From Methylophaga sp. (GTDB lineage Bacteria > Pseudomonadota > Gammaproteobacteria > Nitrosococcales > Methylophagaceae), in NCBI GenBank assembly GCA_040882115.1, contig JBBEBX010000008.1, positions 2,113 through 66,112 on the forward strand: 64,000 nucleotides of DNA, read 5' to 3'. The translations under genes and the position numbers were made by a program. The first letter of the stretch is position 1; every line of letters begins with the position of its first letter. Below are positions 12,737-22,131 of the stretch, in pieces. The notes under the pieces are model-generated. The model made no database searches, had not been told where the DNA came from, and was given only the letters and a program-made list of their open reading frames with translations.

Positions 12737-13412
12737 TGACGACGTTGTAACTACTGAACAAGCTGATGTGCTGTCCGCTGATGAACTGGCCAATGCCTAT
12801 CAGCGCTGGGAAGCACCGCGCATGGTGTCGGTGGAAGATATCGAACAGGGTAAACATAAGCCGCTGACCGTTGCTGCCATCGAAAAACTGCATGAAGAAA
12901 CCCGTCAGGAAGCCTTTAAAAATGGTTACGAAGAAGGCCATAAATCGGGTTATGAAGCCGGTATCGCCGCAGGCCAGAAACATATCAAACAGCAAGTGGC
13001 GCAGTGGCAAAAATTGATCGAACATTTGAATGCACCACTGTCGGCATTAGACGATCAGGTCGAGCAGGATTTACTGCAACTGGTGCAAACGCTGGCGCAG
13101 CAATTTATTCAGTATGAGTTGCAATTACAGCCTGAGCGGGTCGTCGATGCCATGCGCGCAGCTTTGGCTGCCTTGCCAATTAATGACCGCAAATTAAAAA
13201 TCTTTTTACACCCACAAGATGTTGAGTTGGTGAAGGCTGGTTTGGCGCTGGATCATGAGGATGCGCGTTGGCAGTGGCTGGAAGATCCCTTGTTGACCCG
13301 TGGTGGCGTGCGATTGGAAACGGCTGATACCAGTGTCGATGCCAGTGTTGAGGCGCGCCTTTCGCGGTTAATTGAAAAAATGTTGGGTGAGCGTCGTGAC
13401 CCAACCGAATAA
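12723..13412 (+). CDS. fliH: Flagellar export protein FliH
   Basis: GYEEG/GYEAG repeats, LHPQD, RGGVRLET; start approximate. Confidence 0.93.
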   Translation: MTSSDDDVVTTEQADVLSADELANAYQRWEAPRMVSVEDIEQGKHKPLTVAAIEKLHEETRQEAFKNGYEEGHKSGYEAGIAAGQKHIKQQVAQWQKLIEHLNAPLSALDDQVEQDLLQLVQTLAQQFIQYELQLQPERVVDAMRAALAALPINDRKLKIFLHPQDVELVKAGLALDHEDARWQWLEDPLLTRGGVRLETADTSVDASVEARLSRLIEKMLGERRDPTE

Positions 13413-14799
13413 ATTTGGCGCAGCGCGCTGGCACCAGCAACTCAGTGATTATCAGCAGCGGCTGGAACGGGCCGATCACAGTTCATCGGTTAATGTCGAA
13501 GGGCGTTTAACCCGCATGGTGGGCCTGACCCTGGAAGCGGTCGGATTTCAGGCACCTATTGGCAGCCGTTGTGAAATTCATGCCAAAGGTCAGCAGCCGG
13601 TCGAAGCTGAAGTTGTCGGCTTTCATGACGAAACCCTGTATTTGATGCCAACCGGTGATATGCGGGGTTTAGTGCCCAATGCCAAAGTCCGGCCGGTACG
13701 CAGTGATTCACAGGTGCCGGTAGGCGAGGCATTACTCGGCCGGGTAGTTGATGGTGCTTGTAAACCGCTGGATGGCAAAGGGCCACTAAAAGTAAAAGAT
13801 CGGGTGCCGTTGCATGGTCAGCCGGTGAATCCGCTGGCCAGAGCGCCGATCAGGCAGCATTTGGATGTGGGCGTACAGGCCATTAACGCTTTGCTCAGTG
13901 TCGGCCGTGGTCAGCGGATGGGGCTGTTTGCCGGCAGTGGTGTCGGTAAAAGTGTGTTGCTGGGCATGATGACGCGCTTTACTGAAGCCGATGTGATTGT
14001 GGTCGGTCTGATTGGTGAACGGGGTCGTGAGGTTAAAGAGTTTATCGAAGATATTCTCGGCGAAACTGGCTTAAAGCGGGCAGTGGTGGTGGCGTCACCT
14101 GCTGATCATTCGCCGCTGATGCGTTTGCATGGCGCGATGCTGGCGACCAGTATCGCCGAGTATTTTCGCGATCAAGGCAAACAAGTGTTACTGCTGATGG
14201 ATTCGCTGACCCGTTATGCACAGGCGCAACGGGAAATTGCCCTGGCTATTGGTGAGCCACCGGCGACCAAGGGCTATCCGCCCTCGGTGTTTTCATTATT
14301 GCCACAGCTGGTCGAACGCGCAGGTAATGGCGAAGCCGGCAAAGGTGCAATCACGGCTATTTATACGGTGTTGACTGAAGGGGATGATCAGCAAGATCCG
14401 GTGGCCGATGCGGCACGTGCCATTCTTGATGGCCATATTGTGTTATCGCGGCAATTGGCGGAATCCGGTGTTTATCCGGCGATAGATGTAGAAGCATCGA
14501 TCAGCCGGGTTATGCCGCAGGTTGTTGACAGCAAACATCTTCAACAGGCGCAATTATTCAAACAAATTTATGCCACCTACCGGCAAAATCAGGATCTGAT
14601 CAATATCGGTGCCTACAGCGCTGGCAGTGATCCGCAGATTGATCATGCGATTCAGATGTTTCCGAAATTACGTAATTTATTGAAACAGGACATGCATCAA
14701 GCGCATGATTGGCAACAGAGCGTTAATAATCTGCAACAAACCTTGCAGGCGCCGCCCGCCGCTGCCAATCCGCCGTCGCGGGCAGCAAATACACGCTAA
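13396..14799 (+). CDS. fliI: Flagellar export ATPase FliI
   Basis: GLFAGSGVGKS Walker A, LLMDSLTRYAQAQRE, ILDGHIVLSR; GTG start approximate. Confidence 0.97.
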   Translation: MTQPNKFGAARWHQQLSDYQQRLERADHSSSVNVEGRLTRMVGLTLEAVGFQAPIGSRCEIHAKGQQPVEAEVVGFHDETLYLMPTGDMRGLVPNAKVRPVRSDSQVPVGEALLGRVVDGACKPLDGKGPLKVKDRVPLHGQPVNPLARAPIRQHLDVGVQAINALLSVGRGQRMGLFAGSGVGKSVLLGMMTRFTEADVIVVGLIGERGREVKEFIEDILGETGLKRAVVVASPADHSPLMRLHGAMLATSIAEYFRDQGKQVLLLMDSLTRYAQAQREIALAIGEPPATKGYPPSVFSLLPQLVERAGNGEAGKGAITAIYTVLTEGDDQQDPVADAARAILDGHIVLSRQLAESGVYPAIDVEASISRVMPQVVDSKHLQQAQLFKQIYATYRQNQDLINIGAYSAGSDPQIDHAIQMFPKLRNLLKQDMHQAHDWQQSVNNLQQTLQAPPAAANPPSRAANTR

Positions 14800-14817: not shown

Positions 14818-15261
14818 ATGGCACGCGCCCAAAAGCTGATTCCAGTCATTGATATGGCCCGTCGGGAAACTGAGCAAGCCCAGCTGCAACTGGCTGATGC
14901 CAATCGATTACTGCATCAGGAACAGCAGCAGTTGCAGGATTTGCAGCATTACCGGCAGGTCTATTTGCAGCGCTTTCGCAGCGCCGATCCGCAGGTTATG
15001 TCAGCACGTAAGGCCATTGAGCTACGCAGTTTTCTGGTGCAGTTGGACCAGGCGATTCAGTTACAGGAATCACAGGTTCGACAGTACCTGAGTCAGTCAC
15101 AACATAAACAACAAATCTGGCTGCAAGCGCGCAGCAAACAGCAAGCCATGGAAACCTTGCTGGAGCGTTATCAGCAGCAGGATATGCAGCAACAACAGCG
15201 GCGTGAACAATTGCTCACCGACGAATTCAGTGCCCAGATATGGCGTCGCAAACAGCCCTGA
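14818..15261 (+). CDS. fliJ: Flagellar export protein FliJ
   Basis: 147-aa coiled coil after fliI; FLVQLDQAI, EQLLTDEF. Confidence 0.9.
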   Translation: MARAQKLIPVIDMARRETEQAQLQLADANRLLHQEQQQLQDLQHYRQVYLQRFRSADPQVMSARKAIELRSFLVQLDQAIQLQESQVRQYLSQSQHKQQIWLQARSKQQAMETLLERYQQQDMQQQQRREQLLTDEFSAQIWRRKQP

Positions 15262-15317
15262 GATAAAAAGCCAAAAATCCGACTGCGGAAATGTCACTGC
15301 CGGCCGATAAGTCTTAT

Positions 15318-15614
15318 ATGACTAAGCCGGAAATACAAACAGTGCAATTTGCTTCGCGGCTGACTATTGCCGAGACCCCGGATTGGTATATACGATTACT
15401 GACGCTGCTGCTGGATAGTAATGTATTAACTATCGACCTGCATGCAGTGACACGAATCGATACAGCCGGTTTACAATTGCTATGTTGCTTTGCCAGAGAA
15501 GCAGCGCGTCTGCAAGTGACGCTAAACTGGCAGCCATTGCCGGAATCTGTACAACAAGCATTGGATCTTGCTGGTCTGGAACTGGCGGGCATTGAAACGG
15601 CAATTAGGGAGTAA
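15318..15614 (+). CDS. STAS-domain protein (anti-anti-sigma/MlaB-like)
   Basis: LTIA...IDLHAVTRIDTAGLQLL STAS signature; alternative start at 15291. Confidence 0.85.
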   Translation: MTKPEIQTVQFASRLTIAETPDWYIRLLTLLLDSNVLTIDLHAVTRIDTAGLQLLCCFAREAARLQVTLNWQPLPESVQQALDLAGLELAGIETAIRE

Positions 15615-15616
15615 CC

Positions 15617-15979
15617 ATGGCGGTCATTTTAAGCGTTGATGATTCTGCATCATTACGACAAATGTTGATGATCACGCTGCAAAATGCCGGTCATCGGGTG
15701 GTTAGTGCAGAGGATGGCCGCACGGCCTTTGAACTGGCACAACAATATCCCTTTGATCTGATTCTCACTGATTTTAATATGCCGCAATTAGATGGCCCGG
15801 GGCTTATCAAGGCGCTGCGCGCCGAACCGGCTTACCAGCACACGCCCATGCTGTTGCTGACTACCGAAGATGCGCCGGAAAAAAAACAACTGGGAAAAAC
15901 TGCCGGCGCTACCGGTTGGCTAAGGAAACCAGTTGATGCCCAACAACTATTGATGACTATCGACAGGCTGCTGGGCTGA
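15617..15979 (+). CDS. cheY: CheY-like single-domain response regulator (F7/F8-type)
   Basis: D8-D9, phospho-D52 (TDFNMP), LTTE, KP; GKTAGATGWL typical of F7/F8 CheY. Confidence 0.9.
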   Translation: MAVILSVDDSASLRQMLMITLQNAGHRVVSAEDGRTAFELAQQYPFDLILTDFNMPQLDGPGLIKALRAEPAYQHTPMLLLTTEDAPEKKQLGKTAGATGWLRKPVDAQQLLMTIDRLLG

Positions 15980-15985
15980 GCCGGT

Positions 15986-17749
15986 ATGACGATGACTGTG
16001 CAGGTTGCGAGCCTATCAGCACTCTTTATTGAAGAAAGCCGGCAATTGCTGATGCAAATCGAGCAGGGCTGGCAACAAGCGCAGTCCGGCGATATACAGT
16101 GGCGCAGCCAAATGCTGCGGCAACTGCATCAGCTGAAAGGTATGGCAGCAAGCTTTAACCAATCCGCTGTAGCCGATTGTTGCCATCAACTGGAAACACA
16201 GCTCAATCAACAAGATTCAGCAATGTCTCCGGAACAGGCCATTGCGGTCAGTCAAACGCTGTGCATGCTGCATGACATTTTGCACAGTGTTAAATATGTT
16301 GCACAGACACCTGCGATTGAGACGCCTGAGCAGATCACGACAGCGAATGAGCAGCTTTGGCGGATTGATTTCAAACCGTTACCGGGCTTTTTTGCCAATG
16401 GCCAGGACCCGCTGCATTACCTGAAACAACTGCAACAGCTGGGTGATATGACGGTGCTTGCCGATACCAGTCAGTTACCGGTCTTTGCTGATTTTGATGC
16501 CAGCCAGCCGTGTTTAAGCTGGCAGGTAACGCTAAAAACGGATGTTGATGAACAAAGCCTCTGGCAGCTGTTTGATTGGGTTAAAGAACTGTGTCAGGTC
16601 AATATAACTGCCTTAAATGAAATCCCGCCGCCAATGCAGTCGCCAGCGCCAGCGCGGCAATCGCCGCTGAATGACATTATGCGTCGGCATCAGCAACAGT
16701 TGGCTTGGTTGCAGGAGTTACAACAAGCTGCGCAGGGTTTGCCATCGTCGTTGCAAAATCGTCTGGAGCAATTGCAATTGGCGCAGTCGCAAAATTATCT
16801 GGATTTGCAAAAACTGATGCTCAAGCCATTAAGCACGGCTTACCAGCGCCTGCCGGGTTTGTTACAAACCATTTGTAAACAGACTGGCAAACAAGCGGAT
16901 TTGGTACTGCCTTCACAGCCAATCTGGTTGCCGGCAATGACATTGGATTTGATCAGTGATGTGTTGATCCAACTGCTACGCAATGCTATTGCCCATGGCA
17001 TTGAGTCACCTGATTCGCGCCTTGCTGCCGGCAAATCCCCACAGGGGCAAATTGCGATTGAACATTACCTGGATGGCTTGCAACTGAAGCTGCATTTTTA
17101 TGATGATGGTTGCGGTTTGCAAAGCGAAAAAATTCTTGCCGCGGCCGGTGAAAACACCAGTGCCGATATTCACGAGTTGATTTTTCAGGCGGGTCTGAGC
17201 ACGACCCGTATGCCAGATTTACTAGCTGGTCGGGGGATTGGCCTGGATCTGGTACGCCAGCATATTCAGCAATTGCAAGGGCACATCAGCGTGGCCTCAG
17301 ATAATGCAGGATGTGCTTTCCATATCAGCATACCGCTGCCGCAAACCCTGCAAGTACTTCAGGCGGTGGCGGTGGCCGATCAGATATTTGTGGTGTCGCC
17401 GGAGTGCATCATTGCCGATTTGCCTGCCAGCAGTTTGCCATTACGCCAGGTCAGCGGTCGCGGTGAATTTGTTGAATATCAGCAGCAGTGGTGGCCGGTA
17501 TGGGATATCAGACAACGCTTAAAACTGGTTGGCCCGATGCCTGAAGACAGCCGTTTACTGATTATGCGTGAGCAGGGGCGGCAGTATATGCTGCGAGTGG
17601 ATAAGCTGCTGCTTCCGGCAGAGTATTTGCTTAGTGATGTTCAGCGTCATTATCAGTCGTTGCCGGGCGTAGTGGCATTGGCAACGAATGGCGGCCTGCA
17701 GCCCGCCTTGTGGCTGCAATGGCAACAGATTTTTGGTGAGCGTAAATGA
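15986..17749 (+). CDS. Divergent CheA-like histidine kinase (HPt-P2-P3-HATPase-CheW)
   Basis: HPt H48 (LHQLKG), P2-like WRIDFKP...QDPL...LQQLG, N-box LLRNAIAHG, DDGCGL, GRGIGLDLV, C-terminal CheW-like domain. Confidence 0.85.
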   Translation: MTMTVQVASLSALFIEESRQLLMQIEQGWQQAQSGDIQWRSQMLRQLHQLKGMAASFNQSAVADCCHQLETQLNQQDSAMSPEQAIAVSQTLCMLHDILHSVKYVAQTPAIETPEQITTANEQLWRIDFKPLPGFFANGQDPLHYLKQLQQLGDMTVLADTSQLPVFADFDASQPCLSWQVTLKTDVDEQSLWQLFDWVKELCQVNITALNEIPPPMQSPAPARQSPLNDIMRRHQQQLAWLQELQQAAQGLPSSLQNRLEQLQLAQSQNYLDLQKLMLKPLSTAYQRLPGLLQTICKQTGKQADLVLPSQPIWLPAMTLDLISDVLIQLLRNAIAHGIESPDSRLAAGKSPQGQIAIEHYLDGLQLKLHFYDDGCGLQSEKILAAAGENTSADIHELIFQAGLSTTRMPDLLAGRGIGLDLVRQHIQQLQGHISVASDNAGCAFHISIPLPQTLQVLQAVAVADQIFVVSPECIIADLPASSLPLRQVSGRGEFVEYQQQWWPVWDIRQRLKLVGPMPEDSRLLIMREQGRQYMLRVDKLLLPAEYLLSDVQRHYQSLPGVVALATNGGLQPALWLQWQQIFGERK

Positions 17750-18132
17750 ATCCATCATCACAGTGGCTGCTGTTTCGGCGTGGCCGGCAAGGTTTTGCGG
17801 TTGCAGCTGATGCGCTCGTCTGTCAGTTATCGGCTTTTGCTTGTGCCGTTTTGCCGGATGCGCCTGCGGGTATTGTCGGCTTATTCAGTTTTGCCGGTGA
17901 GGCGCTGCCCATGTTAGATATGGCTGCAGTTGCCGGTGACTTAGCCGAGCCAACAGGTAATTGTCTGATCATCAGTATTGATGCAAAACGACAATTGGGA
18001 TTGCTCAGTGATGATGTCGCGGTGTTAACGAATACCGTACCCGAACAGGATGCGATAGTTATCGACGACAAACACTACAAATTATTAAACGCGCCGGTAC
18101 TCATACAATTGCTGGCCGGAGCAGCGGACTGA
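17746..18132 (+). CDS. Short, degenerate CheW-like protein
   Basis: LPDAPAGIVGLFSFAGEALPMLD aligns to CheW core but lacks NLRG; ATGA overlap with the cheA-like gene. Confidence 0.65.
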   Translation: MNPSSQWLLFRRGRQGFAVAADALVCQLSAFACAVLPDAPAGIVGLFSFAGEALPMLDMAAVAGDLAEPTGNCLIISIDAKRQLGLLSDDVAVLTNTVPEQDAIVIDDKHYKLLNAPVLIQLLAGAAD

Positions 18133-18845
18133 TGGCGACAACCCCAAGAGTGGTCGCCGTCATGAATCAGACCCATGATGTCGGCAAAACCTTTATAACC
18201 GCCAATCTGGCCTATGCGCTAACGGCGCAGGGCAAATCAGTATTGCTGATCGATATGGATCCTCAGGCTGATTTAAGTCGTAGTTTTCAAGTGCCGGCTA
18301 CTCAGCCGGGCCTGCGTGACTTTTTGCAGGGCACATTAACGCTGCCAGAGGTATCGCTGACCATTACCGATGGCCTGACATTAATAGCGACCGGCCAGGA
18401 TCTGGCCGCTTTTGATCAATCGCCAACAGATAAAATGGCACGGGGCAGACAATTACTTAATTATCTGTCAGCCGGCGTGTTTGCTGATTTTGATTTGTTA
18501 TTACTGGATTGCGCTGCGGTGTCGGGTTTGCTGGGCAGTAATGCAGTGTTAGTGGCATCTGATATGTTGTTACCAGTCACCGGCGATGCGCCGGCGATGC
18601 AAGGCATGCTTGATATGTTACCGGTGATTCGCCGGGTCAGTCAGCGGCGCAGTGTGCCGTTACGGGTATGGTTATGCCTGAATCGTTTGCCGCGCGGCAA
18701 TGCATATGTTGAGCAGTTAGCGGCGACCCTGAATCAGTATTTCCCCAAGCGACTGCTGCGCACCATGATTTATGAAGCTGATGAAGCACAAACCACGGTT
18801 TATCAATCGTTGGCGCAGGATTTACTGGCCGGCAGAACCAGCTGA
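18132..18845 (+). CDS. ParA/Soj-family protein with degenerate deviant Walker A
   Basis: NQTHDVGKT, LLIDMDPQAD, LLLDC; shortened C-terminus; TGATG coupling at both ends. Confidence 0.85.
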   Translation: MATTPRVVAVMNQTHDVGKTFITANLAYALTAQGKSVLLIDMDPQADLSRSFQVPATQPGLRDFLQGTLTLPEVSLTITDGLTLIATGQDLAAFDQSPTDKMARGRQLLNYLSAGVFADFDLLLLDCAAVSGLLGSNAVLVASDMLLPVTGDAPAMQGMLDMLPVIRRVSQRRSVPLRVWLCLNRLPRGNAYVEQLAATLNQYFPKRLLRTMIYEADEAQTTVYQSLAQDLLAGRTS

Positions 18846-19486
18846 TGACCATGCCAATTTTTCCGGATAATGACCAGATCGCGCTTATCGAGCGCAGTTT
18901 TCCGCAACTGCTGGCGGTGACACCGTCTGTTTCCGAGCAGTTTTATCAGCGACTGGCGGCAGAACATCCGGACATATTCAGATTGTTTGAGGATGCCGAT
19001 GCGACTGGTCAGCAGCAAAAACTGCTGGCGGCGATGACGTTGCTGGTGACGAATCTCAATCAACCGACGTTGATAGACAGTTATTTTCAGGCACTTGGTG
19101 AACGCCACCAACAATATGGCGTCAGGGATGAGATGTTTGCGCCGTTCACAGAGACCTGGCTGGCGGTGATAATGGATTGCCTGGGTGAAAGCAATGCCAA
19201 CACAGTCAGCGCTGCCTGGCGGCAACTACTGAATTATGTTGTTGGCATCATGCATTATTCTGTTACTGCCAAAGCCCCGACAGCCCGTACCGCGGACAAT
19301 ACTGCAGACAGTGTATTGACACCACACATCGCTGATTTACTGGCACAACAACAACGTCTTATCACGCAGCTTAGCCTTGCTGCCAGCCGGGAACCGGCAG
19401 CGCAGAACTTGCTGGCCGATCTGGCAGAGTTACGGTTAGCGAGCAGTGCGTTGCAATTGGCACTGAGCGACCATCAATCCTCCTGA
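18845..19486 (+). CDS. Single-domain 3/3 heme globin with C-terminal helical extension
   Basis: Globin pattern with Tyr34 (B10), Phe48 (CD1), Gln56 (E7), proximal His88 (LGERH..YGV), AAW in helix H; ~80-aa tail. Confidence 0.85.
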   Translation: MTMPIFPDNDQIALIERSFPQLLAVTPSVSEQFYQRLAAEHPDIFRLFEDADATGQQQKLLAAMTLLVTNLNQPTLIDSYFQALGERHQQYGVRDEMFAPFTETWLAVIMDCLGESNANTVSAAWRQLLNYVVGIMHYSVTAKAPTARTADNTADSVLTPHIADLLAQQQRLITQLSLAASREPAAQNLLADLAELRLASSALQLALSDHQSS

Positions 19487-19499
19487 ATAATTATAAAGC

Positions 19500-19515
19500 T
19501 GGCATCTGCTTTGCA
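19500..19515 (+). promoter_or_regulatory. sigma54 promoter of fliK
   Basis: TGGCATCTGCTTTGCA, near-consensus TGGCA-N6-TTGCA, 41 bp before the fliK ATG. Confidence 0.85.
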
Positions 19516-19556: not shown

Positions 19557-20897
19557 ATGAATGCACCGCTGACTATTAAAACCGAGGTTGCTGCCAGTAA
19601 GCCGGCAAATGAAAGTGCCAAAGCCACACCGGCCAACGATAACAATGGCTTTAGTCAGGCCCTGGAAAAACAAGTTCAGGACAATGGCAAAGCTGAAACG
19701 GACCGTAGTAGCCGTGCTCAGAAAAATGCAGAACATCAGGAAAGCCGCGATAACAATGCCAGGAAATCGGATCAAGCGGCAGTAACTGCCAGTGAAGACG
19801 GCAAAAAATTGCCGCCTGCCGGGGATAATGACAAAGCGGTAAAAGCTGAGGATGGTGAACAAACAGCTGAATCAACTGATAAAGCTACCAATAGCACCGA
19901 AACTAAAACGGATGATAATGCACCATCTTCAGAAACAGTCACGGTTAATGTGGCTGCGCCGGCAATAGAAAAGTCAGCAACTGAAAAAGTCACCATGACC
20001 TTATCAAGCAATGCCAAGGCACAGCCCAAGTCGGTCATAGCTGGAGACGATGCTCCGTACAAAGCCGTCATACAAAATCTGACCCCGGTGCTTAACGCCG
20101 AAGGCGATATCAAAACTGTCGACATCGATGGTAAAACCCGTTTTGCCGATATCCTGAAAAAAGATGGCGCAGCACAATCAGCGATACGTGCTGATATTTT
20201 GCAGGCCATCAGTCAGAAAACCAGCAGCGATGACAGTAATGGACAAACCTTAAAAACCAGCTTGCAAAACCTCCTGCTCAACGCTGACAATAAGCCGCAG
20301 GCAAATGCTCAGGTAGCCGAACTGATTCGACAGATCCAACCGGGGCAACAGCGCAGCACTGACAACCGGACACCAGCGGGGTTGGTGACCGCATTAACGC
20401 CGGCTGCCAGTGCGCCCGGGCAAGCCAGTGCAGCCAGCACGCCGCAAATTGCTATGGATGTGCAGCCACAACTCAACAGTGCTGCCTGGTCACGGGTGGT
20501 CAGCAGTCGGGTAGTGTGGATGGCCCGTGAAGGCGTTCAGCAAGCTGAACTGCGTTTAAATCCCGCGAATTTAGGCTCGGTGGACGTGCGTTTAAACATC
20601 AATAATGATCAGGCCAGCGTCACCTTTCTGGCACAAAATGCTGCCACGCGTGAAGCACTGGAACAAGCTATGCCAAGGCTCAGAGAAAGTCTGGCGGAGA
20701 ATGGTCTGTCGCTGACACACAGTGAAGTAGGTCAGCAGGATCATTCTGATCAGCAAGCTTCTGAAGATGAAACAAGTATGCAAAACGGTCATTTGGCTCA
20801 AGTATCGGTTCCATTGGACGATACAGAAGATGAACTGGTAACGGGGATGCCGACAGAGGTCAATGAACCGTCCACCGGCGTCAGCTTGTACGCATAA
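19557..20897 (+). CDS. fliK: Hook-length control protein FliK
   Basis: Low-complexity N-region; C-terminal AELRLNPANLGSVDVRL...REALEQAMPRLRESLAENGLSL domain. Confidence 0.93.
   Translation: MNAPLTIKTEVAASKPANESAKATPANDNNGFSQALEKQVQDNGKAETDRSSRAQKNAEHQESRDNNARKSDQAAVTASEDGKKLPPAGDNDKAVKAEDGEQTAESTDKATNSTETKTDDNAPSSETVTVNVAAPAIEKSATEKVTMTLSSNAKAQPKSVIAGDDAPYKAVIQNLTPVLNAEGDIKTVDIDGKTRFADILKKDGAAQSAIRADILQAISQKTSSDDSNGQTLKTSLQNLLLNADNKPQANAQVAELIRQIQPGQQRSTDNRTPAGLVTALTPAASAPGQASAASTPQIAMDVQPQLNSAAWSRVVSSRVVWMAREGVQQAELRLNPANLGSVDVRLNINNDQASVTFLAQNAATREALEQAMPRLRESLAENGLSLTHSEVGQQDHSDQQASEDETSMQNGHLAQVSVPLDDTEDELVTGMPTEVNEPSTGVSLYA
19777..19814. promoter_or_regulatory. Tandem CGGCAA-type palindromes (candidate FleR/FlrC enhancer) inside fliK
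   Basis: CGGCAG-TAA-CTGCCA (19777-19791) and perfect CGGCAA-AAAA-TTGCCG (19799-19814), ~270-300 bp downstream of the sigma54 promoter. Confidence 0.55.
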
Positions 20898-20931: not shown

Positions 20932-22131
20932 ATGGCCGTGTTTAAATTAGAAAATTACTCGCTGAGAAAACGCATGTACATCGTTGCCGGTTTTGGCATC
21001 ATTGGCCTGTTGCTTTTCGCGTTATTGGGCTGGTATTTACAGACCGCGCAGCTTGCTGCCGCGACACAGTGGCAAATTATTGCTGGTTACATTATTGTCG
21101 CCAGTGCCATTGTCATGTACCTGGCGCATGTCATTGGCCGCTTTGGCGACTCGCGTGCCACCACTTTGGTAACCGGTATTCAGAATATCAAGAAAGGTGA
21201 TTTGACCCAGAAAATCGTTATTTCTGGCAAAAGTGATTTTAGCTGGATGGCGTTTGAGCTCGACAGTGCCCGTAAAAATGTCTCGAATCTGGTGCAGACC
21301 CTGGCCAGCGGTGTCGATCAGTTAAATACTGCGACACAAAATATGGCAGTGATCAGTAAAGAAACGGTCAGCGGCGTATTAAAGCAGCAGGCAGAAACCG
21401 ATCAGGTAGCGACAGCCATGAACGAAATGACGGCCTCTGTTCAGGAGGTTGCCCGTACTGCATCAAATGCTGCAGATGCTGCCCGCAATGCTGATAATGA
21501 AGCCAAAGCCGGCAAAAAAGTTGTGCTGCAAACTATGCATTCAATTGATTCCTTGGCCGGTGAAGTTGAAAAAGCTGCAGAAACGATTAGTAGTCTGGAA
21601 GCGGATATCAATAATATCGGCGCGATTATTGACGTGATTCGCGGTATTACCGAGCAAACCAATTTACTGGCTTTAAATGCGGCTATTGAAGCGGCCCGTG
21701 CCGGTGAGCATGGTCGTGGTTTTGCTGTGGTCGCCGATGAAGTACGTACTTTGGCATCGCGTACCCAGTCATCGACCCATGAAATTGAAGAAATGATCGG
21801 TCGCCTGCAAGTGGGTGCCCGGGAAGCAGTTAAGGTGATGAACGACAGTCGCGAAAAAGCCCGTAACAGTGTGGAAATGGCTGAGAGTGCCGGCGCGGCA
21901 TTGGATACCATTACCGCGATGATTAGCACCATGGATGAAATGAGTGCGCAGATTTCCAGCGCTGCCAATGAGCAATCTTCAGTTGCAGAAGATATTAATC
22001 GCGGTATTGTCGAAATCAGTCAGATTGCTGATCACACCGCTGAAGGCGCTCAGGAAACGTCAACTGCCGTTGATACGCTGAGTGGTCTGTCGGCGCAGTT
22101 GCAGGAAGCTTCTGGTAAATTCAAGATTTAA
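20932..22131 (+). CDS. Methyl-accepting chemotaxis protein lacking a sensor domain (TM-TM-HAMP-MA)
   Basis: Two TM helices joined by a ~14-aa loop, HAMP-like segment, hairpin tip [31 protein letters not shown]; true start may be GTG 20938. Confidence 0.93.

Follow-up and report, generated by a model that had tools for sequence, protein, structure and literature searches.

We analysed a stretch of 64,000 nucleotides (nt) from Methylophaga sp. (assembly GCA_040882115.1, contig JBBEBX010000008.1, positions 2,113 to 66,112; hereafter the window), part of a 2.54 Mb genome in 11 contigs, and concentrated on a six-gene chemosensory cassette located between the flagellar genes fliJ and fliK. Pfam searches assigned the six genes, all on the forward strand, to a STAS protein with the anti-sigma-antagonist fold (positions 15318-15614; STAS_2, 54 bits), a CheY-like single-domain response regulator (15617-15979; Response_reg, 83 bits), a divergent CheA-like kinase (15986-17749; Hpt, 45 bits, HATPase_c, 44 bits, and a weak CheW domain, 17.7 bits), a shortened CheW-like coupling protein (17746-18132; CheW, 26.8 bits), a ParA-like protein (18132-18845; AAA_31, 86 bits) and a globin protein of 213 amino acids (aa) (18845-19486; Globin, 47.5 bits, residues 32-135). 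The slot is bordered upstream by fliJ (14818-15261; FliJ, 77 bits) and downstream by fliK (19557-20897; Flg_hook, 91 bits), both also on the forward strand, and a chemosensory cassette follows fliJ in all related loci. We refer below to the proteins of the window as cassette CheY, cassette CheA, cassette CheW and cassette ParA.

The six genes are tightly packed. The fliJ-STAS gap is 56 nt, STAS and CheY are separated by 2 nt and CheY and CheA by 6 nt, while CheA and CheW overlap by 4 nt and both CheW/ParA and ParA/globin by 1 nt; the gap between the globin gene and fliK is 70 nt. The STAS reading frame can open at 15291 or at 15318, and orthologs use the ATG at 15318. No terminator-like site was found within the intergenic spaces, the count for the region being not above that in shuffled sequence, and neither CheR, CheB, CheD nor a Pfam-recognisable methyl-accepting chemotaxis protein (MCP) is encoded inside the six-gene cassette. 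These results agree with a first-pass annotation of the same DNA, made from the sequence alone, in its account of a compact co-oriented gene set between fliJ and fliK, the STAS start at 15318, the lack of a terminator after fliJ and the absence of CheR, CheB and CheD. That annotation had also described a cassette that contains no MCP and ends in a globin; this is correct in so far as no MCP is recognisable there, but comparison with related loci (below) identified the globin gene as a truncated remnant of the receptor of the cluster.

The origin of the cassette became apparent from the same slot in related genomes. Full-length CheA relatives of the window type were confined to the same genus, where they occur in 14/37 genomes (this one counted), and were present in 0/46 genomes of the remaining four genera in the family. 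Nearly all other genomes of the family encode a more canonical CheA 2-3 kb downstream of fliJ. Twelve such loci were retrieved, and most hold a complete cluster in the fliJ-fliK slot (L046-L049, L051-L053, L056 and L057, with the genes confirmed by Pfam). The order in these complete clusters is STAS-CheY-CheA-CheW-ParA, then a receptor, CheR-CheD-CheB and a second, McpA-like MCP of 390 aa, followed by fliK and a further MCP (the post-fliK MCP). Their CheA proteins are 675-720 aa long and are recognised by Pfam in Hpt, H-kinase_dim, HATPase_c and CheW domains, CheW is 168 aa, ParA 252-261 aa and the receptor 794-922 aa. By Pfam the receptor consists of Globin, PAS, PAS, HAMP and MCPsignal domains, with a 36H signalling domain and the C-terminus EWDEF. 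Its first PAS domain matches Aer2 of Pseudomonas aeruginosa (3vol, E value 1e-27) and its signalling domain matches Escherichia coli Tsr (chain residues 231-523).

These complete clusters match the 'stage 1' type of F7 cluster, whose gene order was described by Ortega et al. 2020 (PMC7184735) and which includes Vibrio cholerae cluster III and V. vulnificus che2. In stage 1 F7 clusters, which accompany an F6 system as a second chemosensory system, a STAS gene precedes cheY, cheA and cheW (PMC7184735), as it does in the window. The sister loci additionally share with stage 1 clusters, in the same slot, an Aer2-like 36H receptor with an xWxxF-type pentapeptide end, cheR-cheD-cheB and an mcpA-like receptor. 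The window itself has the STAS-cheY-cheA order and is positionally orthologous to, and descended from, the complete F7 clusters; however, it lacks cheR, cheD and cheB, the mcpA-like second receptor, the PAS, HAMP and signalling domains of the Aer2-like 36H receptor, and the terminal pair of STAS and Ser phosphatase genes. Conversely, the published stage 1 description includes neither the ParA-like gene nor the globin that the window contains. The first-pass annotation was therefore right in likening the cassette to STAS-headed F7 clusters, but its proposal of an undescribed system did not hold, since sister lineages carry in the same slot a complete cluster of the stage 1 F7 (Aer2/Che2) type, which was described earlier (PMC7184735). 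A further resemblance is to the Che2/Aer2 system of P. aeruginosa (stage 2 F7), in which a haem-based gas-sensing cytoplasmic receptor feeds CheA2 and CheY2. P. aeruginosa Aer2 senses through a PAS-haem, whereas the window keeps only an M-type globin, without PAS and without adaptation enzymes. Aer2 systems are O2 sensors (PMC10107281), and chemotaxis research has yet to establish what stage 1 and stage 2 F7 systems do (PMC7184735).

Complete-type CheA relatives with 52-69% identity were also found in Nitrincola, Methylomonas, Methylotuvimicrobium, Cycloclasticus, Pseudoalteromonas, Bacterioplanoides and numerous uncultured gammaproteobacteria. The clusters around these relatives repeatedly include STAS and ParA genes, and many of the receptors have an N-terminal globin. 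In the F7 clusters of many gammaproteobacteria, Nitrincola and Cycloclasticus among them (L068, L071, L075, L076, L083, L124, L125, L134 and others), STAS and ParA genes accompany Aer2-like receptors that carry an M-type globin at the N terminus, and no description of globin-Aer2 receptor fusions was found in the papers examined. F7 clusters also adjoin fliI, fliJ and fliK in other gammaproteobacterial lineages (L071, L111, L119 and L123, from Chromatiales, Bacterioplanoides and uncultured bacteria), either before or after fliK. At one locus from another genus (L054:2419-4519, G002), the CheA in the slot is split into frames of 396 and 294 aa and there is no STAS match, which may reflect a frameshift or an assembly error.

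A tree of FliI and FliJ placed the reduced forms of the cassette in a monophyletic group with the branching order (B,(C,(D,A))), the window belonging to clade A, and species with complete clusters as sister group and outgroups. The reduced forms have several derived traits in common: the loss of cheR, cheD, cheB and the second MCP; a change of the ParA Walker A motif from NQKGGVGKT to NQTHDVGKT, accompanied by an 18-aa deletion; the loss of the long P2-P3 linker of CheA, with a P3 that Pfam does not recognise; and a CheW cut at its N terminus and internally. They differ in the receptor. Clade B encodes a receptor of 448-452 aa, in which a globin and a short MCPsignal domain flank a weakly PAS-like middle. 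Form C (L002) has a 242-aa receptor whose tail matches the MCP tip in profile comparisons (hhalign, E value 1e-6 to 2e-7). In clade A the remnant is 208-218 aa long, and 213 aa in the window. Form D (L034) has no receptor gene, with a ParA-fliK gap of 177 nt, and keeps the other five genes. This comparison of genome sequences shows a single loss of CheR, CheD, CheB and the McpA-like receptor in one Methylophaga clade, followed there by stepwise shortening of the globin-bearing receptor. Because the reduced and complete forms occupy the same fliJ-fliK slot, the flanking-gene tree unites the reduced forms, and these share derived changes in ParA and CheA, we conclude that the cassette descends from a complete F7 cluster. 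It is a lineage-specific, stably maintained reduction of a known system, with an unusual miniature receptor and an altered ParA, and not a new kind of system. No description of the reduced form was found in full-text literature on STAS and ParA in che clusters or on chemotaxis or globins in Methylophaga.

By position, the globin gene of the window is the ortholog of the globin-PAS-HAMP-MCP receptor gene of the complete clusters, in truncated form. Three parts can be distinguished on the forward strand: a globin domain (18845-19264; M-type, with a 3-on-3 fold according to Pfam and to matches in sequence and fold to PDB entries), a variable linker (19265-19315) and a conserved C-terminal helical hairpin (residues 158-213; 19316-19486). 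The globin domain shares 35% identity with its counterpart in the 448-aa globin-MCP ortholog. Its best sequence matches in the PDB are Hell's Gate globin I and flavohaemoglobins, and its fold matches 3s1i with a template modelling (TM) score of 0.90. Residues Y34, Q57/Q58 and H88, at the usual positions of the B10 Tyr, E7 Gln and F8 His, are nearly invariant. An AlphaFold2 model of the protein (predicted local distance difference test (pLDDT) 79) consists of the globin, a disordered segment at residues 141-157 (pLDDT below 50) and two helices at residues 154-181 and 184-212, joined by an R-E-P turn. A multiple alignment puts the hairpin in register with the tip of the receptor by way of the 242-aa intermediate, and no match to Pfam MCPsignal was detected in the globin protein of the window. 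The 55-aa hairpin is a probable remnant of an MCP tip, an assignment made on position rather than on profile statistics.

These proteins resemble HemAT and other globin-coupled sensors in that the 448-aa and 794-922-aa orthologs join a globin to a chemoreceptor signalling module. However, their globins are myoglobin- and flavohaemoglobin-like (M): Pfam Globin scores are 47-65 bits against 17-20 bits for Protoglobin, with no significant Protoglobin match for the window globin, and the closest structures are Hell's Gate globin I, neuroglobin and flavohaemoglobins. The signalling domain of the window protein is moreover cut to a hairpin that Pfam misses. A globin-coupled sensor of the HemAT type was ruled out by the Pfam, PDB and fold matches.

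The phosphorelay core of the cassette appears intact from its residues, as had been noted at first reading from CheA H48, the N, G1 and G2 boxes and CheY D52. Across 25 CheA sequences from reduced and complete loci, H48/K51/G52, N333, H337/G338, the G1 box D373-D374-G375-x-G377 and the G2 box G415-R416-G417-x-G419 are invariant, and CheY keeps D8, D9, D52, T80 and K103. Pfam H-kinase_dim gave no match in the CheA-like protein of the window. An AlphaFold model of this protein (pLDDT 79) has five domains, namely a P1 helix bundle, a P2-like alpha/beta domain (residues 123-209), a P3-like hairpin (227-276), P4 and P5, and the closest folds found by Foldseek are the CheA P3-P4-P5 chains 8c5v_A and 1b3q (E value 4e-26 to 2e-22). 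Sequence and model together thus provide the P1 His, P3 hairpin, P4 boxes and P5 expected of a CheA kinase. Cassette CheW has approximately 20 N-terminal and approximately 17 internal residues fewer than the 168-aa CheW of complete clusters.

In cassette ParA the Walker A motif reads NQTHDVGKT where complete clusters read NQKGGVGKT, so that the signature lysine of KGGxxK[ST] is gone, and the 18-aa deletion lies near the C terminus. The P-loop GKT, Walker A' (DMDPQ) and Walker B (LLLDC) are retained. ParA-family genes are also found inside che clusters beside a cytoplasmic receptor in the case of PpfA of Rhodobacter sphaeroides and ParC of Vibrio, and PpfA positions cytoplasmic receptor clusters (PMC3964821). 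The window protein differs from PpfA and ParC in that Thr-His-Asp replaces the Lys-Gly-Gly of the deviant Walker A motif, in addition to the deletion. Without the signature lysine, cassette ParA probably does not go through the ATP sandwich dimer cycle of PpfA, and ATP-driven dimer cycling is doubtful from the sequence.

We compared selection on these genes using the ratio of nonsynonymous to synonymous substitution rates (dN/dS), calculated pairwise by the Nei-Gojobori method within clade A, where dS ranged from 0.3 to more than 1. Values were 0.03-0.07 for CheY, 0.02-0.09 for ParA, 0.16-0.25 for CheA, 0.11-0.26 for CheW, 0.11-0.25 for the globin gene and 0.17-0.29 for STAS; among flagellar genes of the same clade, fliI gave 0.03-0.05 and fliK 0.16-0.21. 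Within the globin gene the hairpin had the lowest values (0.08-0.12), and the linker was near neutral (0.2-1.0). In complete clusters dN/dS was 0.07-0.09 for STAS, 0.07-0.10 for CheA, 0.05-0.12 for CheW and 0.07-0.09 for the receptor. All six reading frames were intact in every clade A genome examined, and a protein database contained 25 distinct globin-hairpin proteins with 54-100% identity and at least 13 sequences of the cassette CheA type. The coding sequences thus show that the six genes are intact and under purifying selection (dN/dS 0.02-0.29). The very low dN/dS of cassette ParA argues for a structural role that has been kept.

We favour, with moderate confidence, the reading that the cassette arose by reduction from a stage 1 F7 (Aer2/Che2-type) cluster and most likely forms an adaptation-free, haem-linked pathway from kinase to CheY. 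The description of a stripped, adaptation-free chemosensory module in the first-pass annotation is upheld here, as the adaptation genes were lost from the cassette, the genome carries no spare copies of them, and the kinase and receiver residues were kept. In the mechanism we propose, the haem globin would bind O2 (or NO/CO), and its hairpin would dimerise into a short four-helix bundle that docks on cassette CheW and on the P5 domain of cassette CheA in the manner of a receptor tip. Docking of the hairpin would set how far CheA autophosphorylates at H48 and passes phosphate to D52 of CheY, with no adaptation by methylation. Cassette ParA, without the lysine for an ATP sandwich dimer, would be a static tether rather than a dynamic partitioning ATPase, and the STAS protein would work together with the CheA scaffold.

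A more specific proposal is that the 213-aa globin-hairpin protein is a working miniature chemoreceptor, with a gas-binding globin on a kinase-docking MCP tip, that controls a co-diverged CheA/CheW pair. We put this forward tentatively, as a possibility to which we give the smaller share of our belief. If it is true, the protein would be the smallest natural chemoreceptor, and the Methylophaga series of 922, 448, 242, 213 and 0 aa would be a natural deletion experiment on what CheA control needs from a receptor.

Several observations weigh against a haem-linked kinase pathway with a working receptor remnant. The canonical MCP tip motif is unrecognisable in the window hairpin, and in hhalign comparisons the clade A tail matched the tail of form C (L002) only at an E value of 0.07 and found nothing in the complete or 448-aa receptors. 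The linker, near neutral and predicted to be disordered, is hard to square with mechanical signalling from globin to hairpin. Form D (L034) keeps five genes without a receptor, so that the kinase may not need to depend on the globin protein. For STAS, CheA, CheW and the receptor, constraint is approximately 2-3 fold looser than in complete clusters, with CheY and ParA unchanged. Finally, two independent erosions of the cluster, one of them in another genus (L050:3243-7434) and the other at L055:2538-6202, lost the kinase domain and CheY. Both keep STAS, a P2-like and P5 scaffold, CheW and a globin-MCP receptor, and in L050 the STAS protein is fused to the CheA remnant (STAS_2 at residues 16-89, CheW domain at 435-561).

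Since L050 and L055 keep STAS and the scaffold without kinase or CheY, and since STAS is fused to the CheA remnant in L050, the STAS protein probably acts on the CheA scaffold, as far as these gene contents indicate. The same loci bear on an alternative in which the real output is STAS and not CheY; the complex would work as a partner switch that targets flagellar gene expression (HsbA/FlgM-like) or something else, with the phosphorelay secondary. STAS is the first gene of the cluster in reduced and complete forms alike and in many gammaproteobacteria, its RIDTAG motif, including the Thr, is conserved across all forms, and both erosions spare STAS, the P2-like and P5 domains, CheW and the globin receptor but not the kinase and CheY. 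However, the clade of the window strictly keeps the kinase motifs and CheY, which is among its most constrained genes. Nor did the genome offer partners: no RsbW-, RsbU- or HsbR-type protein was found in it, with all HATPase_c_2 matches lying within frames of 433-821 aa, and it encodes two STAS proteins only. The sole SpoIIE/PP2C match of the genome is a 575-aa fusion of PP2C and a Hanks-type Ser/Thr kinase (L138:1255-2982; G000:C11:400851-402578). In V. vulnificus, an interaction between CheA2 and RsbU was not seen (PMC10107281). We therefore consider STAS output unlikely, and the suggestion in the first-pass annotation of a STAS partner switch acting on FlgM/FliA drew no support from partner genes.

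A second alternative is that cassette CheA and CheW couple to the post-fliK MCP or to the main F6 array, with the globin-hairpin protein as a separate soluble O2/NO-binding accessory in a bipartite receptor. The post-fliK MCP (20932-22131, forward strand; MCPsignal, 153 bits) is a hairpin-anchored HAMP-MCP without a sensing domain located directly after fliK, and it is always adjacent; the first-pass annotation did not include it in describing the cassette. The F6 array is known to take in McpA-like receptors from F7 clusters (PMC7184735), and the lineage without globin (L034) keeps cassette-type CheA and CheW, as this alternative would allow. However, the post-fliK MCP shows 75-97% identity across all related loci regardless of what remains of the cassette, and is thus equally conserved beside complete clusters that own a 36H receptor. 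Compared with that receptor it has insertions of 7 aa and 14 aa, which assign it to a longer heptad class than 36H, and its tip is canonical, yet the P5 domain of cassette CheA and cassette CheW are strongly diverged. Coupling to another receptor is accordingly quite unlikely in our judgement. Because of its equal conservation beside complete clusters and its longer heptad class, the post-fliK MCP probably lies outside the cassette and is a receptor of the main system, and as a candidate receptor of the cassette it was judged unlikely on the same two grounds.

A third alternative, that the cassette is a decaying remnant without present function, further along the erosion seen in the family, might draw on the stepwise loss of genes and domains, the independent erosions in L050 and L055, the receptor gone in L034, the dN/dS values of STAS, CheA, CheW and the receptor at 2-3 times those of complete clusters, and the failure of Pfam to find P3 and its bare recognition of P5 and CheW, but it is very improbable given six intact frames throughout clade A, the 25 globin-hairpin and at least 13 CheA sequences, dN/dS of 0.02-0.29 across the whole range of dS, invariant catalytic residues, a hairpin that is the most constrained part of the globin gene, and persistence of the reduced state through a whole clade of at least 14 species. 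The values near 1 or disrupted orthologs that would have marked a decaying pseudogene set were looked for, and what was found was dN/dS far below 1 and uninterrupted frames.

One genomic slot in Methylophaga thus offers a graded natural series, from complete clusters through forms without adaptation enzymes and with receptors of 448, 242 and 213 aa to a form with no receptor, and separate lineages lost the kinase and CheY but kept STAS, scaffold and receptor. The chief value of the locus lies in the natural deletion series that it provides for the stage 1 F7 pathway, itself still unexplained. Comparison of strains could show which parts belong to the core function, whether a receptor tip alone regulates CheA, and what roles the STAS and ParA-like genes have. 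The locus also suggests caution in annotation, as a 'stand-alone globin' can be a chemoreceptor remnant.

Two promoter-like boxes lie at the borders of the cassette. A GCCGATAA box, similar to a sigma-28 -10 element, is present on the forward strand in the fliJ-STAS gap (15303-15310) and is conserved in reduced and complete loci. Seven copies of it occur across the window against 2.0 expected, a number reached in 0/100 shuffles. It sits 7 nt ahead of the STAS ATG, too close for a normal leader, and no convincing sigma-28 -35 element could be placed upstream of it. Its conservation hints at a candidate promoter of the cassette's own. At the other border, a sigma-54-type promoter box of fliK (TGGCAT-N5-TTGCA; 19500-19515, forward strand) is the sole match in the window and lies 41 nt ahead of the fliK ATG. 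A box of this type (TGGCAY-N5-TTGCW) was present 35-74 nt upstream of the fliK ATG in 20/20 loci, whatever the state of the cassette (the window, L001-L003, L034-L038, L040, L043-L046, L050, L052, L053 and L055-L057).

The remaining chemosensory genes of this genome are few. The whole genome encodes one CheR (on contig C6), one CheB (on C11, in the main cluster) and no CheD. Contig C11 groups a second CheA (a 665-aa frame), CheW, a CheW-like gene and CheB, a possible F6 set. The receptor repertoire is very small, with four MCPsignal genes genome-wide, one of them beside a Chp/Pil cluster on C2. In the window, fliI (13372-14799, by Pfam) precedes fliJ, and the post-fliK MCP is followed by pyrF, tgt, yajC and secDF, where the flagellar region stops.

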